The notes: generated from the letters alone by a model not told the origin. A stretch of 64,000 nt of DNA from Mytilus trossulus (GCF_036588685.1 NC_086380.1:38564001-38628000), one strand, 5' to 3'; counted from the first letter of the stretch, positions 14,371 to 63,467 are shown. Numbers and translations are program-made.

Positions 14371-14574
14371 ATATCTATAACTTTTTGTGTTGTGTCACAA
14401 ACTATAAACTTGTTATATGTAGTGTAATGGCAATACATGGACAATTTTATTTGTTTTCTTGCAGGTTATCGACAGTAGACAAGTAAATTACATTTCCCTT
14501 GGTTTGTAAATGGTGTGAATCTTACTTGTGTTGCCGTATATGTGTACACACAATTGGTCTCCGTCATAATAGTT

Positions 14575-15351
14575 ATGAAGAAGAAGAGTCATGCGTGTGA
14601 TGTCTGTGGGGGATGTTTTAGTCGTAGTTATGGCTTACTAATACACAGATTACGACATTCAGGTGAAAAACAACATACATGTGAGATATGCAGTAAACAA
14701 TTTTATTGTAAAGCTGATTTAAATCAACACGCAAAATATCATACCGGCGAAAAAAATCATTCGTGTGATGTATGTAATAAAGGGTTTATCACGTCTGGTA
14801 TTCTGAAGGCACACATGAGGAGCCATACAGGCAACAATGAAAGAAACCATATATGCAACGAGTGCGGAAAAGCATTTTTAACGTCTCATCATTTAAAAAG
14901 ACATGTACAAATACATACTGGCAAAAAACAATACGAATGTGAAAAATGTGGCCACACATTTTTACTGAATCTACGGCAATATTTGAAAAGTCATGCTGGC
15001 ACTGAGTCTGTCAGAGAAAAACGATTGTTTTGTGATGTATGCGGTAAAGGATTTCATTTAGGTACTGACTTGAAAAAACATAAGAGAACTTATACTGGTG
15101 AAAGACCTTATAAATGCGACACATGTGAAAAGCGATTTAGCACATTAAGTACCATGTATTCACACCAGAGAATACATACCGGGGAAAAACCATACAAGTG
15201 TAATTTATGTAGTAAAGCATTTTGTCAGAGTCATGATTTGACAAAGCATGTAAGAATACATACCGGTGAAAAACCGTATAAATGTGAAATATGTTCAAAG
15301 GGTTTTATTCAGAGTCAGCATCTGAAGAGACACTCGGAAACGCAACATTAA
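14575..15351 (+). CDS. C2H2 zinc-finger protein, 9 fingers (fingers 5 and 6 degenerate), 258 aa
   Basis: Repeated CxxC-x12-HxxxH with TGEKPY-type linkers. First ATG at 14575 (the ORF track starts at a GTG). Splice acceptor TTTTCTTGCAG ends at 14464, implying an upstream exon. Confidence 0.9.
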   Translation: MKKKSHACDVCGGCFSRSYGLLIHRLRHSGEKQHTCEICSKQFYCKADLNQHAKYHTGEKNHSCDVCNKGFITSGILKAHMRSHTGNNERNHICNECGKAFLTSHHLKRHVQIHTGKKQYECEKCGHTFLLNLRQYLKSHAGTESVREKRLFCDVCGKGFHLGTDLKKHKRTYTGERPYKCDTCEKRFSTLSTMYSHQRIHTGEKPYKCNLCSKAFCQSHDLTKHVRIHTGEKPYKCEICSKGFIQSQHLKRHSETQH

Positions 15352-19773: not shown

Positions 19774-22700
19774 CAGGTGCGTAGCTAGCATTCAATTCAA
19801 CTGTAGGCACAAATCGGCAGAGGGTCTGGGGCCGCCTAAGGCCCCCAGCCGGTCCAGGGCGGAGCCCTGGTAGGGGGTTCAGGGGGGCTTCGCCCCCCTT
19901 CGGAAAACGGTTTTCAGCATTTTAGTTGCATAATTTTGTGTACAAAAATATCATGTTTACTGGTTTTTATCATGATGATATCCATGAAGAAAAGTTCGAA
20001 GAATTATGAGTAATTTTACATTAACACGTGAATTAACGTAGTACAATCAGAAATCTGAAAAAAATAAATAAAATATTGATATTTACAATATGCCCAGTGT
20101 AGATCAGACTAGTTTTAGAGAGGGTCAAAGGAAAAGGTTTTTAACTTTTTTAAATGTATCTTTTAACTTAAATTTTTGGGGAAAAAATTGTTAAACAAAT
20201 CTTATATTTCTGAACTTTTATAAATAACTTTCAGATCCAGTTACACACAATTTCAAATACAATGATACATTTACTCAAAGTCAAGTCGACGGTTTTTCCT
20301 GCCGATAAAATCAGTAATACTCGCATCAATATCAACATTGAGGTGTCGGTGAATATGAAGAAGAGATAAATTTGAAAGTCGTTCGTCTCCCATTGTCGAT
20401 CTCAGGTAGGATTTCACGCGTCTCATCGCGCTGAATGATCTTTCACTAGTTGCCGATGAAACAGGCATTGTCAATTAAATCCAAATAATCCTATACACTG
20501 AAGGGTACAGATCGGCGTTTGTTACGTTAAGGACACCAAGAAGTCTATCTGGTCTGTTGTCTTCAATACGCCAACGGGCTTTCCATCGTGTTATCTCATC
20601 ATCAAATTCTTTTTATCACCTAAATCCGAACGGTAAGAGTTGTAAATTTTGTCTGCTATTTCTGGAGTCAAGTTCCCTAATTTGGCCGGAATGAAATAAG
20701 AGGCAAGGAAGCGTTCCTCGTTGCTAATCAACCGCTTTGTAATCTCAGCAACCAAGTGGTCGAGAAACACGTAGTATAACGAAACTCTCCAATAGTCTGA
20801 CGGCTCAAGAATTGCATGGTTAGCTCTGTGTCGTTGACGTCCAGCCACACGCGGAACTGATGGCTGGATGTCGTGTTCTGCTGCAATATCTGTTGCTCTT
20901 GCAAACAAGGACTCCCAAACTGTATCATCACCTCTTTCATCGGAAAGCCTTTGAATTACAATTTTAGCCTCTGTCAAAGATTCAATCAAATCAATATCGG
21001 TTTTCTGTAAGTAATTTGTCAAGGTGACTGTTGCGCTCAATATGTGTTCAGCAACAACAAGACTAATAATAAATTCAAATCGAAGTATCGCATTCATACT
21101 CTGTGCTGCTTTGTCATCGTTGTCGTCTTTAAGTGAATTCAGGGAAGAGACAACAACTTCAAATGCTGTTCGAAATGTATACAGCGAATCTGCCCGGCTT
21201 GACCAACGAGTTTCACACAGTGTTCTCAACTTTGTTCGGCGTTCTAGTTGGTCTTGAACGTTTTCATTTTCTGACAGTTCTTCAGTGAAAGCAGTCAAGC
21301 TTTTAGCCGAATAATCAAATTTGAATGCAATTTCTTGTACAGTCAACATCATGTTTCTAACACAAAGTTCCTTACTACTATGAACGAGTGCAAGATTTAG
21401 TTGGTGTGCCTTGCAGTGGATGTAGGAAGCTTCTGGTGATTGCTCTAATATTTTTGCCTGCACACCATTATACTTGCCGGACATATTCGCGGCGCCGTCA
21501 TAACACTGGGCACGGAGATTCCTTATATCAAGGTTTACATGTTCAAGAAACTCAACGATCGTATTAGAAATGGCAACACCTTTTACACTTTTGGCATGTT
21601 TAAAACCAATAAATTCTTCTCGTATGCTGATGATATCGTTTTTCTTATCTAAGAACCTAACACACAAAGACAATTGCTCTTTCGTAGAAACATCCGTGCA
21701 TTCGTCAGCAATAATAGCGAAGTATTTAGCCTCACGACAGGCGTCGATAATGCTATCCTGCACCTGTTGCCCCACAATTTTAATTATCTCATTCTGGATT
21801 TCAGGCGACAAGTATGTCGTCCGACTTCCTGCGCGAAACGCCAGCCAGTCCGAGAGCTTGTCATCATTTCTAGCTATTTCGTGTAGAATAGCAATAAAGT
21901 TGCTTCTTTCCTCTACATGACCTCTTATTGGTATGTTTTGTCGTCCACATAGAAGTATGACTTCGAAAATTTTCATTAAACCATATCTGTTATCGGCAGC
22001 GACCTTCTTATGACTTGACGATATCATGCTCGCGACGGAATCGCCCTTGTCTTTCTTCACGCGAAGGAAATCTTCTCCAGCTATTAAAGAACCTCTGTGT
22101 TGGGACAGATTTTCATGAAACCTGGCCAGGGATAGCAGATTTTTCCAATCTGTTATCGCCGAAGCTGAGAACGATTTCTCCTTAGCATCTACACTTGTAA
22201 AAAGGACACAATATGCACAGAAAACGGAGTCTGTTGATGTAGAATACCGCATCCAGTGGAAATCTTTGAGCCAAGTTGCTTGGAATCTTCTGTTCTTCTT
22301 TCCAAATAAACTGAAACGTACAAGTAACGAAAATAACATATGTGTTTGCATCCAAAGACAGTGCGAAGTATATATTTTTGTTGGCAAACATCACATAATT
22401 AGAAAACTCACAGCGTCATGCATTGCCGAAGTCCCCATACCAAAGAAAACAAATAATTGCCGTTGAAAATCGAAAGGGAGCGCTTGAAAGTGTAAGATTT
22501 ATTTTGATAACTATTTAATTGGTCAAATCAAACTACCTTATGATATTAAGTGTGGACGGACTGACGGACAGTCAGATATCTACCGATCGGAGAGACGGAC
22601 ATATTGATTACTTGATGGCATCCGCTGAATGTAAGTAAGGTCTTAATCAATAATATTATACTGCTTCCCTATATAATACAGGTATCCTCAAGTAGTTACG

Positions 22701-23342: not shown

Positions 23343-23616
23343 ACCTTTAATTATTCACAACTTGCGTAAGCGATGGACTATTTGGAGCTTTACACATTGT
23401 ATTGACTAGACGCTATACTATTATTTATCTCTAGATGTCTTTTTTATGTGGACTTGCTGCCTTATTATCAAAGAAATCACATCCCAATTCATTTTCCCCC
23501 ATGGTATCTTATTTTTTCCTAAAGTTTTGTTTAATGTCATTTATATTCATTCCATGTGTATACTAAATAATATAACCAATTGCAATAAACATGATTTATT
23601 AAAGAGTTTTTGAAAT

Positions 23617-26600
23617 TCAAGAACCATTTTTGTCTTTCTTCTTTTGCCTCGTTTTCTTCTTTTTCTTGCCTTTCCTTTTTCTGTTACGACCCCCTTTCCC
23701 CTTCCTACATTCCGTATAAATGGTTTTGCCTGGACAACATGAATAACAATTTTCTTTTTTCGTGCATTTGATCTTTCCATTAACACAATTTTTACAAAGC
23801 TTATCAATTCTACTCTTCTTCTTGACTTTACATTTTCCTTGAGTAGGTGTCGCTGTTGTGGTTGAAGACGATTGGCTCTGACATTGTGGATGAGTTATCT
23901 GCACCTTGCAACATAGTGTTTTACATTTTTCTTTCGGACGTTTCTTTTCCAAGCATTTTGTACACTGCTGGTCAGTACTATGTGTTGGTTTGGTTGTCTG
24001 ATTTTTGACTGTTAGATCTGTTGTTTTACTATCTTCTTTTGGAGCTGTTGTTCCTTGTTCTAGTTGCATGTCTTGGTCTGCAATAAGAGCTTAATTTAAA
24101 TATTGATATGACATACAGCAAAAAACAACAATTAAATTGTCTTTAATAATAAACGGGTTATTTTGCTTTAAACGTTATAAGCTCATAATTGGTATGTCTT
24201 CATCTGTCCAAGTGAAAGGGGAGGCACATATAAGGTCATATCCAACTTCTGTATAGTTCTGTTAATATCATATACCTACATACTTGATTACTGAAAGTTT
24301 TCATATTTTATTGACTTATTTTATTTAATATTTAATTATTAAGTCACTGTTTGGAAGGCATTTTTTTATAGAGCCATTTTGCCTAGTAGGGTAGGTTATC
24401 GCTTGATTATCGTACGAGGAATTTTAGATTTGATACTTTTGATATTTGAAAATTATTTATAAGAACACAATCTAAAAAAATGGTGCATGTAGTTTGACAT
24501 TTAAGTTGTAAAGAATTCAATTTGCGAATTTGTGCTGAATTGATTTCATACAATGGCAACTTTCAATGAAGTCCTTTTAACTTTACATATATTCATAGTA
24601 CTACAGCCAAATAAAGGCACCAGTAGTATACCACTGTTCATAAAGATAAGTACCTCGAGATTCTAATAATATTTTGAGCTTCTTTTTAAACATTTCCAGG
24701 TCATCGAGTCAAATTATTTAAGCCTTAAGACTTTCCAACGTCTCCATTTTTTAGAGATTTTAGCAAAAGTTGAGCATTTATTCCCAAAATGTGCAAGTAT
24801 TTAGCATCTTTAACCAAAACAAAAATATATGTTGGAAAAGAAAGGCGAAAAATATCATTGAATGATACAAAAACGTTCGTTTTGCTTGGTCTTAGCTAGC
24901 ATGTAAATATTGATTGATTGATAATCGATACGTTACGTCCAGTGACAACTATATCATACATGTGTGCTGCAGTTTATAAAATTTTTTCATCGAAATAATC
25001 AATTGGGTAAGAAATGTTTGTTAAGTGACATTAACCGTAATCATGCATTGAATAATCTTTTATTTATACCAATTTAATATAAATCTTACCCAATGTGATC
25101 ATGAGCTTTGGGTCTTTACCAAACTCGAAAATTCCGTCACATGCAGATTTTCCATTGTTTTCCTGTTTGTTTAGTCCTGTAAATTGACAAAAAAGTTCTA
25201 TTATAATTATATATATTATTATGTGAATTTATTTGCTCTCGTTATGCCGACATCGATTGTACTGAAAAAGCTAATGTAAACATTAAGTGCAAAATTATGA
25301 TTGATGCTGATTGTCTATACTTAGTATCACTGTTTGAATTGTATTTTTTTTTTATATTGTGGAATGCATTAGTAGAGGACCAATTAACGCCTGCAACTGT
25401 CTTTTGTGGGTATATGCTATGTTTTATCTGATAACCCAGATTACATCTAAAAATGTATTATAGTGCACTTATGTGCTTGCTCGAGATTCTGTGTGATAGC
25501 TCCCATAATTATCCTCTATTTTCCCTATTTCTGAGAGTAGCTTTACTTTTAAACTTACTTCTGAAACATATAACGAAGCCTTTACCACCTTTAGAGTTGT
25601 CAGTTTTGGATGAAAATTTGATGTTGACCTGGGTGTAGGGCGGGAATTCTTTACGAAAATCTTCCTTTTCAACCATGATCTCATTAATGGTCAACTGGTC
25701 GTTTTGCATATCGATGTCAAATAAGCTTATCTCTATTAAAACCCTGCTTCCGCCAGAAGTAGGTACGGTGATTGAAGTTTCGCAAGTTTTCTCAGTTTTT
25801 AAAATCTGATTTTCATCAAACATCGTTTTGTCGTAATTCCATGGTATATTTTGATGGCTTAGTATTACTCCACTATTTGCATGGGTTCCTATGTACTGGC
25901 TTTTACATATCAAATCTTTGAAGTACACACTATTTTGTGCAGCTAAAAGGTGAAGAAAACATAGAAAATGATTTTAAAGGAAATATTTGATTGTCATAAT
26001 TATCTTATTTAGTTAACATACACTCGCTGCATTAAAGACACATTGATGACAGTCGTCTGTTATCTGATCTTTGGTCTGGTTGATGTCTATGACACATTCG
26101 CAATTTTACTAATTTTTCAGCTTCAATCGAATTCTCAAACTCCCGATATTATCCGCGATTTGTTTAACATCTTAAAACACTTAGCAAAGTAATCAAAACG
26201 GAGTTTGAGATAAACGTTAAGGTGGAAAAATAGAAAAGCTCAAAGTGCTGTTTTTTCTAAACTTGATTTGTGGGGATGTAGAAGTAAGGTTTAGTCTTAA
26301 TCATTTGTTAATAGATGCATGTTTTTATTTGTTTTTGATTGGCTTTGTGCTAGCTGTCAGTAACTTTGAATACTCTAATATCTGTACTTAGTGTCTTTGA
26401 GGATGTGTACGTGTCATTCTACTTTCACTGTTTGATTTGTTTTTTGCTTTTGTGCTTCGTATCGATCTGATGAATGAAAGTCCTTTTCAACTGATATTTA
26501 TAGTGCATATGTTGTACTGTCTTTTTTTTGTTTTACTTGCCTTTGATACAAATCCAGTCCTGGACTATTATTGATTGTGCCTGATTTACACATGTTCTTG

Positions 26601-29600
26601 TAAAAATCGGTGTCAAGGGAAACTTGATGAAACAGGATTGTTTCCAATAACAATCAGCTATATCTGCATAAAGATCTACAGGTCGGCCAACACAAGGAGG
26701 CTCAGTATTCTGAAAGAATTGACCAGAGGCCGGACATTTGTCAGATGAGGCATCAATTATTGGTTTATAAATAACAGATCCTAGTGGACAGCTAATGTTT
26801 ATGGATTTACATAAGTCATTTTCTGGAGGTACAGGAAAACACGAAGACTTGGTAGGAGAATTTGCCTCTGAAAAAATAAACCGTAAAATTATAAAATTAT
26901 AAAACAGGGAAACATGTTTTTTGGAAAGATAACTAGTTATTTATAAATGTTTACTCATTCATTATAAGTAAGATTGACAAATGCAATCAATAGCCAGGCG
27001 GAGCATCAACTTGTATGTAATTGAATATTTGAAAGACATTTATTTAAACAAAACAAGCAAGCCAACCAAACCTTAAAACTGAAAGCATTAAGAAAATAGC
27101 TCTTAATAACATGAAAACAACAAGAAAAGGTAGAATTAAAAAAAGATTTAACGGGTACAAGTTTATCAAAACATTCAATACCGTAAACCCTCCAAATGAA
27201 ACAGTTGAAGATATTTAATTTATACGTCAAAAATAAACATCCAAATGTCAATACTAAAATGACCATAGTTTCTGTTATATATGACATATGGCCATGACAC
27301 TTGGCAAACTATCTCATTATTGCCTAAGCTAACGTTATGCAAAGTTTTATAAAGATTGGTCAAGTATTTCTGTCCTAAGAGATGGATTCCTGAAATCTAG
27401 ATTCTGTACTTTGGGTACTTTCCTGAATGATTTGCTGGTTTCAATTTGTCAAACTCAACAAAAGTAAAGGATTTACATCTTTGGTTTACAGAAATTCTGT
27501 AAAAAAATGCCATTTTGGCATTCTACAGCTCAAATAAGCATTTTAAAGCAGTTTACATTTTATGCCTAAAAGGCATGCAGACTTTCTATCTGACACCTTT
27601 TTTGATTCTGATATTTGTGTTTCTATGCTTAAATCAAATTAAATTAACCATTTGTGAACTCTGAATAAAGAGAAAAGTAGATTATCACAGAAAAAAGTGC
27701 ATCATATTTTGTATTCATGGCCCTGGTTAAACGGCCTAATTGATGTATGTAAAATGTGAAGTGCTTTGTACATCAAATCTGTAGTCCATCATAAATATTT
27801 CACTAAATCTGTAAAAAAAAGTATTTAACTATATTCAGTACACCTTACTCCTTTAAAGGCTACCATATGTTTTTTCCTGTATGATAGTAAGTGGTCAAAA
27901 TTTATGCCTATTGAGACTAAAACTAAATGCAAGTTTTCCATCGAAAAGTGAAAAAACAGGCCGTCAGACCATATTGTCTTTCAAAAAATTTAAATGCAAG
28001 AGTCCTTTTGGCATTGCATTTAGACTTCTTGTATCATAACATCTTAGCATAGAAATGAACAAAAAGTAACACATTTTCACTTCTGATAGCTTCTGTGTGC
28101 AATTCTATATGTCAATATGGACTACCGCCTACATTGACTCTAAATAATTCTCAGTACTACATGCTCCAAGACCATTTTATACTCATGTGGTATTCTTTTT
28201 GTAACTTTTCTATACATTTAAAGTGCATTTAATATATATGAAAGAATAATTTAAGCTTAAAAAACTTCAAAAACTTCAAATTGGCTGAGAAAAATGCATA
28301 TTTATATAAGGCTTCCCTGAATTGGAAAATCTCTATTTTCAGGCATAGGCGCATATAAATTTGACTTTGGAATAAATACAATACATCTGATAAATAAATT
28401 AGTATGCAGATGCTTTTAATACTAAAAATCTAATATTCAAGAGCATTTAAAAAGCAAATTTTTGCAAATTTTCAAGTTTTTAGGCCAAAATCTTGACAGT
28501 TGAAGATATTTAATTTATACGTCAAAAATAAACATCCAAATGTCAATACTAAAATGACCATAGTTTCTGTTATATATGACATATGGCCATGAAACTTGGC
28601 AAACTATCTCATCATTGCCTAAGCTTAGGTTATGCAAAGTTTAATAAAGATTGGTCAAGTCTTTCTGTCCTATTAGGTCCAAGGACACAGTAACCGTCCT
28701 TTGGTTTCGTTATATAGTCCCTAGTGTAAACAGTGTATAACTTGCATGTTTTATTTAATACACTTTCCCAATTTATTTCTTTATATTAAATGCATGAAAT
28801 ATTAAGTAGGGGGATGTAATTACATGTCAAAAAAATTTGGGTGTTGAAACTTTATGTTAAGTAGTAAATTGGTCCAGTTCTAAAAGGTCAAATTTTATCA
28901 CGTCTGAAGCTGTCAAACTGAATTTTACACCCCCTTAACACAGAATTGTCAATATTTTGAGTTAGAGCTGGGAGAAGTTTCTATAATTTTGATATTATTT
29001 GTCTCACTGGTAGTACACTACACTGTAAAAATAATTTTGAGAAAGAGCAGGTGCGATTTTTTTAATTTGAATTTATTGTCTAAAAGAAATGCACTACGAA
29101 ATAACTGTGTTCTCGGGCCATTTGCGCCAAAAAAAATCTTTCATTTTTGCGCCACAAACCATATTTCATTTGCGCCAAAAATAAAACTTTTCACTTGCGC
29201 GTATAATACGGATGAATGCAGGTAATTGTATAAAAAATAGTTTAAAAAAAATCTTTTAATAGTAAAGGCAGTTTTGATTGCATAATTAATCATTGATTCC
29301 TCAGAAATCATTCGAAATAAAACCATAAAAGTAATTTTAAAACATATTTTTCATTTTAAGTTCAATTAGGTAAATATTAAACATAATTATATAACTTGCA
29401 GTAACTTCACGTATTAAGGCAGTTATACATCAGTTGCTTTAATGTTTAACGGACACGATTTTTCCAAAACTAATATTAATAAAGAAAAGCAGCTCGGACC
29501 AAGCTAATTTATTATGCCCGCGTCACACTGTCCCGATTTTTATTTACGATGGACACCCGAATGCGAAAATTGTAATTTCGTACGAAGTTGGTCCCGATCT

Positions 29601-31264
29601 CGTTAAAATACCAAAAAGTGACTGAAGCAAGTACGATGAATAACGAAGTCTATACGATGGTGCCGAAATTATATACGATAGAAAAAGATGGACAAACGAA
29701 GGTTAACCGAAGACGGGTATTTAAGCTTCATATCTCAGCCGAAGCCTATACGATGATTGCACGATGGCCATACGATGTCTAAAAGACGATTTCATATACA
29801 AATACAGTGTCCATATTTGTCCCCAATATGTTATATACGAGGGGATGCCACGCTCGGCATTGCCTTGTTTGAACTGTAAAATGTGTGCACTAGTCTAAAT
29901 AATCACCCATAAGTATGCCCATGTTTACTGATCTATCCATTTTATTCAAAAAGAGCTCTTTCCAGGAGAATATCATAATAATATAGACAAAAGGAAGGAT
30001 TTGGAGAAAGCAACAAATGCGACAAAAACTGACATACAGAAAACAAAATGGTTATGGAGAAAACATTCGTGTGACAACAACTCAGACGATACATAAAAAA
30101 TCAGAATAATGAAGAAAAAGTTGGTTTCCCTATATACGTGTACCTGCAGTGTTGGTGTACAAGGCGCGTAATTGACAAAAATTGACAAAAAATAATATTT
30201 TACTTGTAAAAGTAAACCCTGAGCCTGTAATAGCTGCTCTTCTTGGTCCATTTGAATTAATAGAAAAAACGATGTCGCCTTTCTTGTTCTCATAGAATCA
30301 TATGATATGAGCTCCATGTTTTGTGAACGTCTTTCTTAACTGTCGTATTAGACAGACCAGTGCATATCGCGTATGGCACTAAATGTATTTTAGCGCGAAA
30401 ATTAACTTTCATTTAGCTGGATTTATGGCCGTCGTAGTCCCATCTTGTCGCCTTCGTACTTTTATCCGATGGCAACACGACGGGATTACGAGGTCTTCAC
30501 AAACTCGTGTTGCCATCGTAATACCTTCGGGTAGCTTCGTGATTCATTCGTGAAGACATCGTAATGTCAAAACTGCCCGATGGAAACGATGGAAACACGA
30601 ATGCTATACGATGTTCAAAGATGCATGGTGAGGATGGTTATACGAACTCAATACGAACCCTCAACATCGAATGCACCTTCGGGGATTTTTTAACATGTTA
30701 AAAAAATTAGAACCCTTCCCGAAGTTGTCCCCGAAAGCTAGAAAAAAAGGCCGATGGTTCTACGATGGTTAAAGATGGCACTGCGAATAGCCCGATCTGG
30801 ATACGATCAGTCCCGATTTTGAAAATTTCCATAATTGTGTTGCCATCGGCGTAAAAATCGGGACAGTGTGACGCGGGCATAAGTGTTTTTTAAAGTTTTA
30901 TTTATTTGTTTTTCAGGGGTCATACTTAAATAACAATGCACCTCGTATGATTTCCACAATATTATTAACATAAATATTACTAGTAATTTAAATATATTAT
31001 TCAAATTACATTGTTGATGACATCATTAAATGTGTTGTTGTCTTTTATATTTGAACGACACCGGTTACTTTCAGGTCTACTTAGAGCTCGTTCAAAACGG
31101 CGGAAAATAAGAATGTAAATTTTAAACGTTTTTTGTAAGATAATATGAATAATTATTTACTACAAAAAGAATAAAATTAAATCATAATAATGCCTGAAAA
31201 TAATCCTACCTGCTTGGGAAATATATCTAAAAACCACAATACTAAGCACAGTAATAAATGCCAT
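23617..31264 (-). CDS. Secreted SUEL/Gal-lectin-like + CUB-like protein with Thr-rich linker and Cys/Lys/Arg-rich tail (437 aa, 5 exons)
   Basis: Exons: 31264-31210 (MAFITVLSIVVFRYISQA, donor CAG|GTAGG); 26867-26541 (ISCPLGSVI...C...C...CYWKQSC...C...WICIK); 25942-25559 (ICK..SGVILSH...CETSI...FSSK...GKGFVICF); 25176-25090; 24077-23617. All introns are phase 1, and the 1314 nt total is open to the stop. Exon 1 is the least certain. Confidence 0.78.
27201..28671. repeat. About 175-bp direct repeats (27201-27376 and 28496-28671) flanking 1.1 kb; probable TE insertion in intron 1
   Basis: ACAGTTGAAGATATTTAATTTATACGTC...GATTGGTCAAGT.TTTCTGTCCTA is present twice, 1295 bp apart, with only a few mismatches. 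Confidence 0.85.
29515..30879. mobile_element. PIF/Harbinger non-autonomous element
   Basis: TIR TGCCCGCGTCACACTGTCCCGATTTTTA / TAAAAATCGGGACAGTGTGACGCGGGCA with TTA/TAA flanks and ACGAT-rich subterminal repeats. Confidence 0.88.
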
Positions 31265-39046: not shown

Positions 39047-40440
39047 CCAACACAACCGGCCCCTTAGAAATGTTACATAATTACTTATGTTTTGTTTTAA
39101 ATTGTATTTGATCAGTCAAAAAACGCCCTTAATGAAGATGATGCGAAGTATTTCAAGTTATTTGTTGAGATACATCAACTGAGACTTCATGGTAATGAAA
39201 ATGCTAAAACTGGTATGCTATACTCTGTACTTGTATATATTGTATTACACAGATCTGCAGCCGAAAAGGATATCAATTTGGACATTTTAACTGAAATGTA
39301 TAATAGCATTTATAAAAGTAGTCTTCCTTCTGAAACTGTTTCCACGGAAACGTGTCTAACGAATTTGGTACCAATTTGAAAGTATCTAGATCAGGTTGAT
39401 GATAAGTTTACACCATGCAGCATTAATGTTGTGAAGGCAGTTATATGCCTTTTTGGATATGAAAGCTGTGAATGCTTTATTTAAAATTGTAGTCTTGATG
39501 TTTTGTTGGATTATGTTGTGCAGAAAGGCACTTTTATCAAAGATTGCCATGTACCTGTTGAAGCATGCGCACTTGCACCAGCTCTGGTTAACAGAATGCA
39601 AAGCCATTCGGATGCTAGGTCTGTCGGAAAATACATATGCAAGTCTGTGGTCGTTCACAAAAATGTTGAAACTGCAGATTTGTTCATTGACACTGTGGAA
39701 AAAATAATGAACATTTCACATCAAACCATATGATTAATCTTTTGGATGGTCTAACAAAAAATGGAAACACATTTTCAATATTTGAAAAAGTAGAAAAGTT
39801 GTTTAACTTATTTTGTCGTCAAGTTGACAAATTCGGAAACACGGTTTTTCATTATTTTGTCACTCGAATTTCTGAATCAAAGACTTTCCTTTCATACATC
39901 AAGTTTTTCTGTGAAAATAATATTGTAGTGATGCTTCTAGAAAATAATTACGACCACAATGCATTAGACTTTGCATCGTATCAAGGTAGGTATGACGTTA
40001 TTGAAAACTTTAATCAAAAACGTTGAGAGAACAGATGACATGGACGCCAGAATACTAACCATGGTGAAAAAGGGGTTGATTTAATACAGTATTTAAATTC
40101 GTCTAAATCCGAACTGAAATCTGATCTGAAGAATTAAACTTTAAGTGGGAGTCGAGATTATATAAACATTTGTAATTTGATAAGAAAAGAGGAAAATATA
40201 TGTTTACTTGTTGATAATACTTATGACGAAGAAGAGAAAAGTTCACCTATTTAAAGAAGAGACAAAACGTTCCCTAATAAAGAAGAGAAAAATATCCCGA
40301 CAAAAATTGAAAAAGAAGATGAGACGCGAAAAACTGTTGAAGAAGAAATAATTTGTTTGGTAACAGAAATCAAAAAGGGCCTTGACGTTGTTGCTAATAT
40401 TACCAAAATCATTAAAACAATTCATCTTGGAGACAAAAAT
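39047..40440 (+). pseudogene. Frameshifted relic of an ankyrin-repeat-containing gene
   Basis: Overlapping broken ORFs (39453-40026) with ankyrin-like DKFGNTVFHY and NNYDHNALDFASYQGRYDVIE, plus multiple stops and frameshifts. Confidence 0.5.
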
Positions 40441-41626
40441 TAATAACGTGTAAGATTTACATTGCTAAATTACTGAAACCTCATTAAAAAGGATGATGAG
40501 AACGTGCTGATTGTATTTTTTCGCCGACTCTGATGTCAACTGTGAAATTCAACTTAATTCAATTTAAGTGCACTGAAAGCTTTTCAAAAGAAACCAAAAT
40601 TAAATATTATCGAGATAAGCATCTATTGGTCAACGTTCAGCCTTCAACAATTGGAATTATCAAAACTGTCGAGTCAGTTATTATAAGTCCCGATAAGTAT
40701 GAGAGACATAACCAGCCAGACAACGTCATCCACTGAATCAGAGGTTCCTGTTATTTGGACGGGGTTTTGTCTCTCTGGCACATTTCCCGTTTCCATTCTC
40801 AATTTATTGCTTGCAAAAATTAATCCTACCTTATCTTAAGACTGTGGTGTTACAACAGAACATTAGCACAACCCGCGAAAATCATTTATAAATGACTTGA
40901 CTCATTTAATATACAAGAGAGGGTGAAAGATACTAGAGGGACAGTCAAACTCATAGATCGAAAATAAACTGACAAAACCATGGCTAAAAAAGAAAGAGAC
41001 AAATCGACAAATAAAAGTACACAAGAAACAACATAGAAAACTAAAGACTTAGCAACCCTACCAAAAACTGGGGGATCTCAGGTGCTCCGGAAGGGTAAGC
41101 AGATTCGTCTCTACAAGTGGTAGTCATCGTAGTCACAAAATGCTCAACGCAACAAAGATAATTAAAAGATTGATGACACAATTCTATTAATCGCAATTAC
41201 TGCAAGCTTGTTCAAAACCAATTACAACTAATATATAAATGATGTCATCAGACTTAAATATCAATCAGTACACATCCAATGGTTTAAGTGTAAAGACGTC
41301 TTGAACAAATATATTTCTTATTTCTCCTTCTTTGTGCTTGTTTGTTTGATGTTGACTGTTTGCTAAGCAGACATCTCAACTGTAACTGCTTAATTTATAC
41401 AAGAATAAAAAGTAATCTATTCTAATATGAAGATTGTTTCCACCATTTTAAAAAGCGAAATATCAATTAAAATGTAAGACGTGTTACGTGTCAGTAGTTT
41501 TTGTCATTTGATATACTCGCTTTGTTTCAAACTGTTATTTTAAACTCCTTTTGATTCAATCAATTGTACATAAATGGTGCATGCGTGATTTTACTATTTA
41601 GTCGAATGTTATACTTTAATTTAAAA

Positions 41627-41870
41627 ATGTCGACAGCAAATTTTATACGATCTGAACAAACCAATGGTTGTTTTCTTTGTACTAAAAAGATTATACAATT
41701 TAGATGCACTGACTGTGATATTCTTATATGTCAGGAATGCAAGAGGAAACATTTAAAAATCAAAAATTCAAATGAACATAATATAACACGTGTTACAGGA
41801 TGGGAGAGGCGTCAACAACCATGAGTTTCTAAAATATCCGAGCAAGTCGAGTGTCGTTACATTTTAAAGA
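41627..41870 (+). pseudogene. B-box (TRIM-like) gene fragment
   Basis: CFLC.....FRCTDCDILICQECKRKHLKIKNSNEHNI is a typical N-terminal B-box. The frame closes at 41824 and no coiled-coil or NHL continuation is visible. Confidence 0.7.
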
Positions 41871-45439: not shown

Positions 45440-47706
45440 TTACAACACAGATCTCATTAATAGTCCGTTTGTGGTTATACTTTTCGGTCTGCAGTCATTA
45501 CCGTCCCGGAAGCTGTTTGATCGTGATCTTGGTGTACAGAATAGCAACTCAGGGTGATTCAGTGATATTTCTTGAATCTGAAAAAAACAGATAAAACAAA
45601 TTTGAATACAAATTGCTGGTTTTCAAAACAAACAAAAACATAGCCATATAACAAAATAAAGATAGCATGATTGTTTATTTTTTATAGGAAAGGCGAAGTC
45701 TTAAAAAGAAATTTATTAAAAGTATAATCGAAGTTTGAAAAGTTTTGTCAGATTTGTGGCTAGTTATTAATAAATAGCATTTACATTTTGAAATAATAAT
45801 AACATGTACAAATAAAAGAGAGAGTTGTCCGTACATGAATGAAATATTTGCCACTGAACATTGATCCATCATTCAATAAAAGAGAGACGAACAATGTGTA
45901 TAACAAGACTAAGAGAACTTAAATGATTATCAATAAAATATCTTTTTTTTTTATAATTTACCTCTTTGAAAAGATCATTTGTCAATTTACAATTGGAGTA
46001 CTCATTCGCTGAGGCAATAAGATCATGTACAAGATCAGGTCGGATACAACTGACAGCAAACTCCCAGCATGCATTCTTCAGACATTCCAACTCAAACTTT
46101 TCAGCAGCGTTCAATAGTCCTATACACAAATAAATTAATAGGGGTAATTAATATATTAACAGGTATTTAAACAGTTCAATTTTAAGATAAGAGTAATTTC
46201 TAAAACATTTTTTAGTTTTTGGAAGGCGAATATTTCAAATTTATATCGACTTAAAAACTGGTATTTTTCTGATAAATAACAAGTTTTGTTTATGGGATCA
46301 TATACACAAAACGTTCAAAGTACTGTTTCTTCCGTAAATCCGTAAAAAATATATTGACTTCGTGACTTATTCATGTTATTAGCAAAATCCATACAGGCTG
46401 ATATTTACTATAAATATCAAAATAATATATTTTAAAAAATCCAATAAAAATTTCAAAAATAAAAAAGTGTGCAGGTTTGGAAAAGTCTCCCCTGGCATAA
46501 AAACAAATCATTTTATAATACTAGCATATACAAACGCATTATTTTAATTAAAGAAGGAAAACGAGAAAAAGAAAATAGAAACACACAAAAAATGAAAAAA
46601 AATGAAAGGAAAAAAATATATCTTACCAACAACAGACAAGACGTCGACTGATACCATGCCACAGTGAATATAACGTACCAGTCTCTCAAATATACTTGGT
46701 TCAAACTCTTCTAGAACTATTGTCAACTTTCTTGAAATGGATGATTCTGGAGTTTGGTATGATGGTTTAGAGGTCAGCAGTTTACGAATTTCTTTCAATT
46801 TCTTCAAAAATCCTATTTTTTTCTGAGAAGCTTGTATTTTGATCTCCTTTTCTTTTGCAAGAATCATCATATAAAACAGTCTGCAATGGAACAAAAATTC
46901 AAATGTTAATTAATGAAATTTGCTAAAAAGTCAAATTATTTTTTTGCCAGTTTGTTTGTATCGTGGTAATGCCAGACTCTGTAACATTTGCCATTTACTA
47001 TGATAAAACACAGAAAACTTCTCAAATGGTTCTTATAAAAAAAAATTATTAAAAATTTAACATGGAAGAATTATGATGCAATATCTACTATTATAATAAA
47101 CGTTCGGTTACCTGCTCCTGGATGCTAGTATTGCTCTCAGTCCGTGGATTGGATATTGCTCGGGACCAACAAGGAACGTAACGTCGCATAGATCAGGTAC
47201 GGACAGAATATACTTTAAATCTTCACACAAAGCTTGCTTATCTTTCAAAACCATTAACTGTGATTCTTCTTCATCATAACAACAAGTGTAAAATTCATCT
47301 GAAACACCAAAGAAAAAAGAAATTGTAATTAATTTTAAACTATGTTACCGATAACAAAATACAATATTCAGTTTCTTAATTAATGTTTCAATATATTTTA
47401 TATTTTTCTGTAATTCAGCGATTTGAGTTTTGTTACCTAATTTATTCAGGTTTTCATAAACTTCAGCGTGCAATGATTCAACAATACATTTTTTTTTTGT
47501 AAATCATCAAATTAAATTTGATTTATATTTACCTAATATTTTTTTTGCATATAATTCAGCGTGCAATGATTCAACCAAAACTGCTTAAAAGATTGATATT
47601 TGCAAAAACTATATTAGAAAATGAGCAAGTTCATGAAATAAAATTATTTATCTATGTAAATTGATTGTACTTAGAACTAACCTTGAAAAGCGGGATTATG
47701 TGCCAT
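45440..47706 (-). CDS. BTB/POZ-domain protein (serine-enriched-protein-like), paralogue A, 253 aa
   Basis: Exons 47706-47682, 47298-47112, 46880-46627, 46119-45962 and 45577-45440; all GT-AG, 762 nt open. BTB motifs LCDVTFLVG..HGLRAILASRSR.FY and F..LVRYIHCG...GLLNAAEKFEL..LK.ACWEF. AATAAA at about 45342-45347. Confidence 0.93.
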
Positions 47707-61181: not shown

Positions 61182-63467
61182 TTACAAGACAGATCTCATT
61201 AATAGTCCGTTTGTGGTTATACTTTTCGGTCTGCAGTCATTACCGTCCCGGAAGCTGTTTGATCGTGATCTTGGTGTACAGAATAGCAACTCAGGTCGAT
61301 TCAGTGATATTTCTTGAATCTGAAATAAACAGATAGAACAAATTTGAATAAATTTTGGTGACTTACATGTAAAATAAACAAAGAATAAAAAATTTTAGTC
61401 ATATAACAAATTATATATTATAGCTAGATTATTTATTTTTGAGAGGGAATTTAAAGCCTAGTCTTACTGAAAAAAACTTACAACGTATGATCAAAGTTTG
61501 AAAAGGGTATTTTTTTTAGATTTGTGACAAGCTATTTGTAGAAAGCATAATTATACATTTTAAGATAAAAATTAAATTTACGAAGAAAAGATCTACTATA
61601 GTAAGTCTTTTTCGAACATGAATGAAATATTTGCCACTGGACGTTTATCAATCAATCAATAAAAGAGAGACGAATAACGTGTCCAGCACGACTGAAAGAA
61701 TTTAAATGATTATCAATATAATATCTTTTTCTTGTTTACCTCTTTGAAAAGATCATTTGTCAATTTACAATTGGAGTACTCGTTCGCTGAGGCAATAAGA
61801 TCGTGAACAAGTTCAGGACGGATGCAGCTAACAGCAAACTCCCAGCATGCATTCTTCAGACATTCCAACTCGAACTTTTCTGCAGCATTCAACAATCCTA
61901 TAAAATAATTGAATGGGGTAAAATAGATATATATTTAAATTGATCACTTTCAACTTTTCAAGATATACGCAGATAGTTTTTAGTTTTGGAAGATGATATT
62001 TTTTACATTCATATCGGTTTATGTACTGTTTTTTTTCTGATAAATAACAATTTGTATGATGATGCATAACAATTTCACATTACAATATAAAAAAGGAGAT
62101 GTGGTATGGTTGCCAATAAGACAACTCTCCACAAAAGAACAAATGACACAGATCTCGAATTAACAACAGAGCCCTTACCGAATAGTCATTTATATAGTTA
62201 CGCAAAATATCCAAAGGACCTTTTCTACCGTAAAAGGCTGTCATCAACATTAAATGACTTTATGATTAATAAAAAAATTAACAAATTCATACAAGCTGAA
62301 TATGGACAAAACAATCGTGAAATTTGTATTGAAAAAAACGAACATGAAATAAGCAAAATGAGCTGTAAAAATATATCTTACCAACAACAGAAAACACGTC
62401 GACTGATACCATGCCACAGTGTATATAACGTACCAGTCTCTCAAATATAATTGGTTCAAATTCTTCTAGAACTATAGTCAACTTTCTTGAAATGGATGAT
62501 TCTGAAGTTGGGTATGATGGTTTAGAGGTCAGCAGTTTACGAATTTCTTTCAGTTTCTTCATAAATCCTAGTTTCTTCTGTGATTCTTGTATTTTAATTT
62601 CCTTTTCTTTAGCAAGGATCATCATATAAAACAGTCTGCAATTGAACAAAAATTCAAATGTTTATTAATGTAAATTTGCTAAAATTCATAAGATTTTTTG
62701 TTTGTTTGCATCGTGGTAACCATTATGCCTTAAACATTTGCCATTTACTAGTACTAAAACACAGAAAACTTATCAAAAGATTCTTAAATATTAGAATCAT
62801 TTAGAATTTGCTGAAATTATTAAATTTAACATTAGTAATATGATGTTTAAATCAATTATAATAAAGCATGTTCTGTTACCTGCTTCTGGATGCTAATATT
62901 GCTCTCAGTCCGTGGATTGAATATTGCTCGGGACCAACTAGGAACGTAACATCGCATAGATCAGGAACGGACAGTATATACTTTAAATCTTCACACAAAG
63001 CCTGCTTGTCCTTCAGAACCATTAACTGTGATTCTTCTTCATCATAACAACACGTGTAAAATTCGTCTGAAAACACAAAAGATATTGCAATTATTTTAAA
63101 TCAAATATGTGATTGATAACAAAATACTTTTACAATAAACAGTAATTGTTTCTTAATTAATTTTTCAATATATATGTATTTTATTTTTTTGTGTAAATCA
63201 GCGATTTGAATTTTGTTACCTAATATAATCAGTGTGGTATAGAATTCAGCGTGCAATGATTCAACATATATATTTTTTTTTACCTTACATGTTATTTGTT
63301 TTGCATATAATTCAACGTACAATTATGATTCAATCAAAACAGCTTTAAAGATTGATATTTGCAAACAAAAATATATCAGAAACTTGTATTGAAAATATTA
63401 AAATTATTTAACATGTATTCATAGATTGTACTTAGTACTAACCTTGGAAAACGGGATTATGTGCCAT
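61182..63467 (-). CDS. BTB/POZ-domain protein, paralogue B, 253 aa
   Basis: Exons 63467-63443, 63066-62880, 62635-62382, 61897-61740 and 61319-61182. Exon lengths (25/187/254/158/138) are identical to paralogue A and the frame is open. Confidence 0.93.

Follow-up and report, generated by a model that had tools for sequence, protein, structure and literature searches.

A mussel gene encoding a putatively secreted protein in which predicted SUEL-type and CUB-type folds, without the canonical sugar site, precede a cationic cysteine-rich end

A 64,000-nt stretch of the Mytilus trossulus genome (GCF_036588685.1 NC_086380.1:38564001-38628000; hereafter the window) contains, within 23617-31264 on the minus strand, a five-exon gene whose 437-residue product is identical to the RefSeq record XP_063397607.1 (‘uncharacterized’; P0001 in our set). 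The protein belongs to an apparently undescribed molluscan family, a variant assembly of known parts in which a head of predicted SUEL/RBL and CUB folds is followed by a strongly basic C-terminus, and the residues of its SUEL-type domain indicate that the canonical sugar site of this fold is lost. An original prediction made from the DNA alone had described a secreted lectin-CUB protein with two Cys clusters and a cationic tail, which it did not recognise as a characterised protein. Its splice model of five phase-1 exons agrees with the RefSeq product and with public contigs, both of its domains were recovered by fold prediction, and we likewise found no characterised protein of the same layout.

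The gene is real and is spliced as modelled (table 1). Introns 1, 3 and 4 are of the GT-AG type and intron 2 requires a GC donor (AAAG/GCAAGT); all four are in phase 1. The evidence for splicing comes from assembled contigs of 8 of the 24 listed public runs, representing seven studies, whose RNA status is a guess (‘RNA?’ or ‘?’). The joint across intron 1 (26867/31210) is present in three of the four runs that cover this intron (X2, X4 and X5), that of intron 3 in six of the eight and that of intron 4 in all eight, and in run X2 a single contig of 1,284 nt supports all four joints. Spliced contigs continue through exon 5 towards the stop, and an X5 contig extends the 5' untranslated region to at least 31323. 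A GT-AG alternative for intron 2 (donor 26537, acceptor 25929) would keep the frame open but was seen in no run, against seven of eight for the GC-AG form. At intron 4 no run equals the window letter for letter, as the alleles diverge close to where exon 4 ends, in most cases through an in-frame gap of 6 nt that is likewise present in database orthologues. A joint at 26504/32317 in one run (side 21, in a repeat) was disregarded.

The domain encoded by exon 2 has the predicted alpha/beta fold of RBL proteins and their eight cysteines (C28, C45, C63, C77, C91, C97, C111 and C125), with an additional C38 (26811-26809). Passages of PMC3269628 describe the RBL disulfides as pairs 1-3, 2-8, 4-7 and 5-6 of these cysteines, and the pairs predicted in this way for the mussel head are jointly present or absent in 43-52 of 52 family proteins, depending on the pair. 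The same passages give the primary site of CSL3 as Glu7, Tyr27, Asn74, Asp79, Gly83 and Lys86, with the motifs YGR and DPC/KYL (PMC3269628). Placed by cysteine anchors, these positions correspond to F29, D57-A58-S59 (Tyr27, YGR), L103, R109 (Asp79, DPC), N113 and S117 (Lys86, KYL), with DAS standing for YGR and RTC/SII for DPC/KYL. Across the family neither DPC nor KYL is found in any of 52 proteins, YG[RK] occurs in two at a different position, and the CSL3 residues are present at their sites in 1/52 (E), 1/52 (N), 2/52 (D), 1/52 (K) and 16/52 (Gly), whereas the 14 canonical SUELs taken from this genome as a control all have YGR, DPC and KY[LV]. Judged by this alignment, the canonical sugar site is lost, contrary to the rhamnose/galactose binding originally claimed, and by its residues the protein stands outside the RBL lectins despite their predicted fold. 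This highlights the danger of reading a SUEL fold as a lectin. P0001 does not match PF02140 and is absent from the PF02140 matches of the genome, and one of 65 relatives matches, below the cut-off. The M. trossulus genome has at least 114 such matches, many clustered on C3, C6, C7, C14 and C26.

The exon 3 domain is predicted to form a CUB beta-sandwich, with cysteines C140-C181 and a family motif G-[VI]-[IL]-x-SH-x3-PW-x-Y. Compared with known CUB domains (PF00431; GPR126, neuropilin, TSG-6, PCPE-1 and spermadhesin) it is shortened, and the second canonical disulfide is replaced by a likely C253-C268 bond, these two residues co-varying in 48 of 52 family proteins. P0001 does not match PF00431; four two-module relatives (P0050, P0052, P0054 and P0055) pass and two others fall just below. 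A calcium-binding CUB signature of Tyr-Glu-Asp-Asp is given in passages of PMC10850435, and alignment to PCPE-1 (E 0.077) places a candidate site at Y164/D205/D209/D242; all four residues are present in 5 of 52 family proteins, the Tyr in 48, D209 in 45 and D205 in 22. An earlier shallow model (11 sequences, predicted local distance difference test 52) was replaced. Searches of the ESM Atlas with the head returned CUB and SUEL leads at 0.79-0.81, and a viral fold library gave nothing but generic CUB/SUEL rows. PDB sequence searches gave no significant match; those seen (Mediator Med19, Cdc37, bunyavirus Gc) were weak, with E values no better than 0.014, and were discarded as chance or composition. 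A homodimer prediction for the head scored 0.01, but the alignment was not used in it and the score speaks neither for nor against a dimer.

In the C-terminal part, the two Cys clusters and the tail are as the original prediction had described, and their shared Cys core is far beyond chance: when the exon-5 peptide was shuffled 20,000 times, two copies never arose and one copy arose 27 times. The proposed relatedness of the clusters fared less well, as alignment of module A with module B (hhalign probability 37, 13 columns) weakly supports homology. Module A is missing from the C14 paralogue and from the orthologue P0003, a M. galloprovincialis RefSeq model that has lost it through an in-frame 55-aa gap, either an allele or a model error. 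The tail proved polycationic and suited to polyanions, as had been claimed; it has 0% hydrophobic residues and low model confidence, and the modules are 14-19% hydrophobic. Exon 5 matches no Pfam family and the modules have no ESM Atlas match; they were not folded alone, so this is no statement at the level of folds. Multibasic sites had also been suggested to release a cationic Cys-rich peptide. No furin site (R-x-K/R-R) is present in P0001, whose dibasic sites lie at R255-R256 (flanked by C253 and C268), K330-R331 (within module A) and K418-R419. The linker ahead of the modules (residues 269-322) lacks KR/RR in all six orthologues and in 10 of 12 module-bearing proteins, the other two, both C2-type, having one KR between two further cysteines. 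Because the furin site is absent and the linker is without KR/RR, it is unsupported that a convertase frees a Cys-rich peptide, although another protease might do so.

In the contigs, exon 5 shows far more polymorphism than exons 2-3 (in X2, 30 differences in ~420 nt vs 1 in 712), a comparison biased by the selection of runs with exon 2-3 words. Among a listed subset of codon changes in X1, 12 are non-synonymous and 3 synonymous. At 23584-24078, runs X1, X2, X5, X9 and X10 contain mosaic alleles, in which exons 2-3 near-identical to the window and an exon 5 that is 6-10% different lie on the same contig, and X9 contains a second allele with a 156-nt stretch replaced. This pattern suggests recombination among alleles or copies.

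A full hidden Markov model search gave 96 matches, of which 47 were kept as family members (at least 250 aa, both head motifs) and 49 dropped as fragments, divergent or generic CUB proteins. Secretion is predicted from a putative cleavable signal peptide with a 10-residue hydrophobic core (residues 3-12) and an A-E-A site, encoded by its own exon; 41 of the 47 relatives have a hydrophobic N-terminus, and no hydrophobic 19-mer follows residue 40 in P0001 or any of the 47. A strongly basic tail is present in 35 of the 47, vs 2 in a control window, and the 15 module-bearing rows make up one side of a branch starred at 97/95, which includes P0047 and P0048; the basic tail is therefore the general feature, to which the Cys modules were added in one clade. 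M. trossulus has two paralogues at about 32% identity (the RefSeq proteins XP_063422408.1 and XP_063414504.1, likewise ‘uncharacterized’), one on C14 and one on C2, with the same phase-1 layout of exons 2-5 and Cys-rich basic last exons; the queries P0055 and P0057 brought up no further paralogue in the genome. There are recorded orthologues for M. trossulus, M. edulis, M. galloprovincialis, M. californianus and M. coruscus. Relatives occur in clams, a scallop, limpets and abalone, the seven clusters named among 11 looked up being Haliotis, Patella (two clusters), Mya, Mactra, Argopecten and Ruditapes, and the conserved motifs span bivalves and gastropods. The family, with three old paralogues in mussels, has members in both classes and escapes standard domain libraries. 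P0057, P0059, P0095 and P0132 have a different, longer C-terminal domain after the head, and intron 1 of the C2 paralogue (L003:230-400) contains a short tandem array of ~45-nt units.

Descriptions of the family were sought in the literature by architecture terms and by accession and locus identifiers, and none was found at the level of titles and abstract starts; subscription papers or supplements may list the gene. The RefSeq record gives the same sequence and gene model and annotates no domain, function, SUEL fold, lost site or Cys modules, and some relatives are labelled ‘CUB domain-containing protein’ in UniRef. SUEL/RBL lectins (PF02140; SUL-I 5h4s, CSL3 2zx0 and the latrophilin lectin domain) share the predicted fold and the eight-Cys pattern, but the mussel protein is without YGR, DPC and KYL, lies below Pfam detection and is fused to a CUB domain and a basic tail. 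It also differs from SUEL-CUB single-pass receptors in the absence of a transmembrane helix, which none of the 47 members has, and of a cytoplasmic tail. The mussel protein is a new arrangement of known folds.

What might such a protein do? We give roughly an even chance to the proposal that it is a secreted adaptor whose head binds a protein and whose cationic end anchors the molecule on acidic mucins or sulfated glycans. As the residues that grip sugar are lost, the pseudo-lectin/CUB head likely binds another protein, and a calcium-dependent acidic CUB site would possibly take Lys or Arg of this partner. The Lys/Arg-rich end, which likely stays attached, would hold the complex in place on mucus, matrix or cell surfaces, and the disulfide-stapled cationic modules inserted before the tail in the mussel clade would tighten the grip. 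This working logic, a CUB recognition module combined with a polycationic heparan sulfate-binding part, is shared by SCUBE1-3 and PCPE-1/2; in PCPE it is the NTR domain that binds heparan sulfate. Published passages describe the polycationic spacer of SCUBE1 as binding heparan sulfate proteoglycans (PMC10214685), calcium-binding CUBs as accepting Lys/Arg of a partner (bioRxiv 10.64898/2026.09.22.752281) and the latrophilin SUEL domain as forming salt bridges with the teneurin that it binds and as admitting a glycan to its intact pocket as well (PMC7195488). The mussel protein differs from SCUBE and PCPE in having one CUB and a SUEL-fold partner domain, homology is confined to the CUB fold, and neither EGF repeats nor an NTR domain was found by Pfam, or by fold over residues 25-262. 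If the tether proposal is true, molluscs have an extracellular adaptor that resembles SCUBE/PCPE but is assembled from other parts. One point weighs against it: the variability of exon 5, including the 12 vs 3 changes in X1, would also be explained by an immune role.

A structural cross-linker of secreted material (mucus gel, periostracum, byssus, shell or egg coat) is an unlikely alternative, in which the acidic CUB face would grip the Lys/Arg tail of the next molecule, or an odd cysteine would link covalently, and a network would form with anionic polymers. Consistent with this, the chain has 27 cysteines, an odd number (6.5% Cys, 13.9% Lys), C38 has no co-varying partner and is present in 18 of 52 family proteins, the acidic CUB site and basic tail lie within one chain, several relatives have two or more head modules, and all seven named distant clusters are from shelled molluscs, a thinly sampled taxon range. 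However, Tyr makes up just 2.2% of residues, with none in module A or in the tail, which sets the protein apart from DOPA-type (3,4-dihydroxyphenylalanine) foot proteins. Five family motifs are absent from the five supplementary files of the M. galloprovincialis shell proteome PMC4517812, whose file list is possibly incomplete and which, being based on expressed sequence tags, is weak evidence here. No motif of one Patella member was found in text passages and two supplements of a limpet mucus paper (PMC7333891), the sequence content of the supplements being unchecked. As a long shot, the whole family might be self-assembling: a calcium-dependent acidic CUB face would grip the next Lys/Arg tail and tails would bind anionic mucins in a reversible underwater gel or coat, with modules A/B (no Pfam or Atlas match found) as the addition of the mussel clade. 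Rather improbable is a non-canonical lectin or spermadhesin-like gamete or mucus recognition protein that binds a sulfated or unusual glycan at a new site, the tail adding avidity. A new glycan site may lie elsewhere on the head, but the canonical site is wholly lost, the equivalent positions are variable with no new conserved set, conserved aromatics may be core residues, and other CUBs match equally well or better.

The immune, byssus or shell role of the original prediction is not supported. In its immune form the head would recognise microbes and a protease would free an antimicrobial Cys-rich cationic peptide, which we consider very unlikely. Mytilus antimicrobial peptides (defensin, mytilin, myticin and mytimacin) are cationic and Cys-rich, as the modules are, and secreted, as is predicted for the mussel protein, and their precursors have a convertase site that releases the mature peptide. 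The modular presence of A, the polymorphism of exon 5, with the bias noted above, and extra nearby copies, present in M. edulis and in M. coruscus on single contigs of equal length, would suit such a role. Against it, the modules end a 49 kDa protein with no processing site ahead of them and match no peptide family in Pfam or the Atlas, their hydrophobicity and that of the tail are low, most relatives have a basic tail without Cys modules, and the 1.3 Gb genome yielded three copies, of which two are on record from five species of Mytilus and one from at least four, vs at least 114 canonical SUEL matches. An annotation artefact or functionless degenerate copy, to which the lack of a Pfam family, the non-canonical GC donor and truncated or frameshifted orthologue models (P0005 and P0006) might point, has next to no probability; we hold it refuted by the open frame, the joining of every intron, the exon layout shared with two paralogues and the conserved motifs. 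If the tether proposal holds, the two small Cys-rich cationic modules are easily made and testable as polyanion binders, wet adhesives or antimicrobials.

Table 1. Parts of the gene and its product, in window coordinates
Feature	Position	Strand	Description
Exon 1, coding part	31264-31210	-	Met1 to residue 18, most of predicted signal peptide
Exon 2	26867-26541	-	Predicted SUEL/RBL-fold domain C28-C125; GC donor at end
Intron 2	26540-25943	-	GC-AG type; CT..GC joint in 7/8 runs
Exon 3	25942-25559	-	Predicted CUB-fold domain, residues about 136-260
Exon 4	25176-25090	-	Short CUB extension with conserved C268
Exon 5	24077-23617	-	Acidic, Thr-rich linker; Cys modules A and B with a Thr spacer between them; basic tail; stop
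Cys module A	23881-23964	-	Residues 323-350, C-x2-C-x9-C-x3-CC-x8-C, 6 Cys, net +6, predicted helical hairpin
Cys module B	23707-23832	-	Residues 367-408, 8 Cys, net +9; in all three paralogues
Polybasic tail	23620-23706	-	Residues 409-437, 29 residues, net +17, 18 K/R, 1 D

Intron 1 contains perfect inverted repeats of 31 nt, separated by 1,309 nt (29512-30882), likely the ends of a non-autonomous DNA transposon, and many repeat-derived contigs pile on this intron; a 177-nt direct repeat of 97% identity lies at 27201-27377 and 28496-28672. A 599-aa open frame with a DUF4371 match (E 4e-22) at 20591-22390 (-), 1.2 kb downstream of the gene, is presumably a hAT-type transposase. Elsewhere in the window are a C2H2 zinc-finger array of about nine fingers at 14479-15351 (+), exons with Ankyrin-like (E 1e-3) and B-box (E 4e-6) matches, perhaps of a single gene, at 39101-41824 (+), and near-identical BTB-like exons ~15.7 kb apart at 45869-46909 (-) and 62287-62661 (-), a local BTB/BACK gene duplication.
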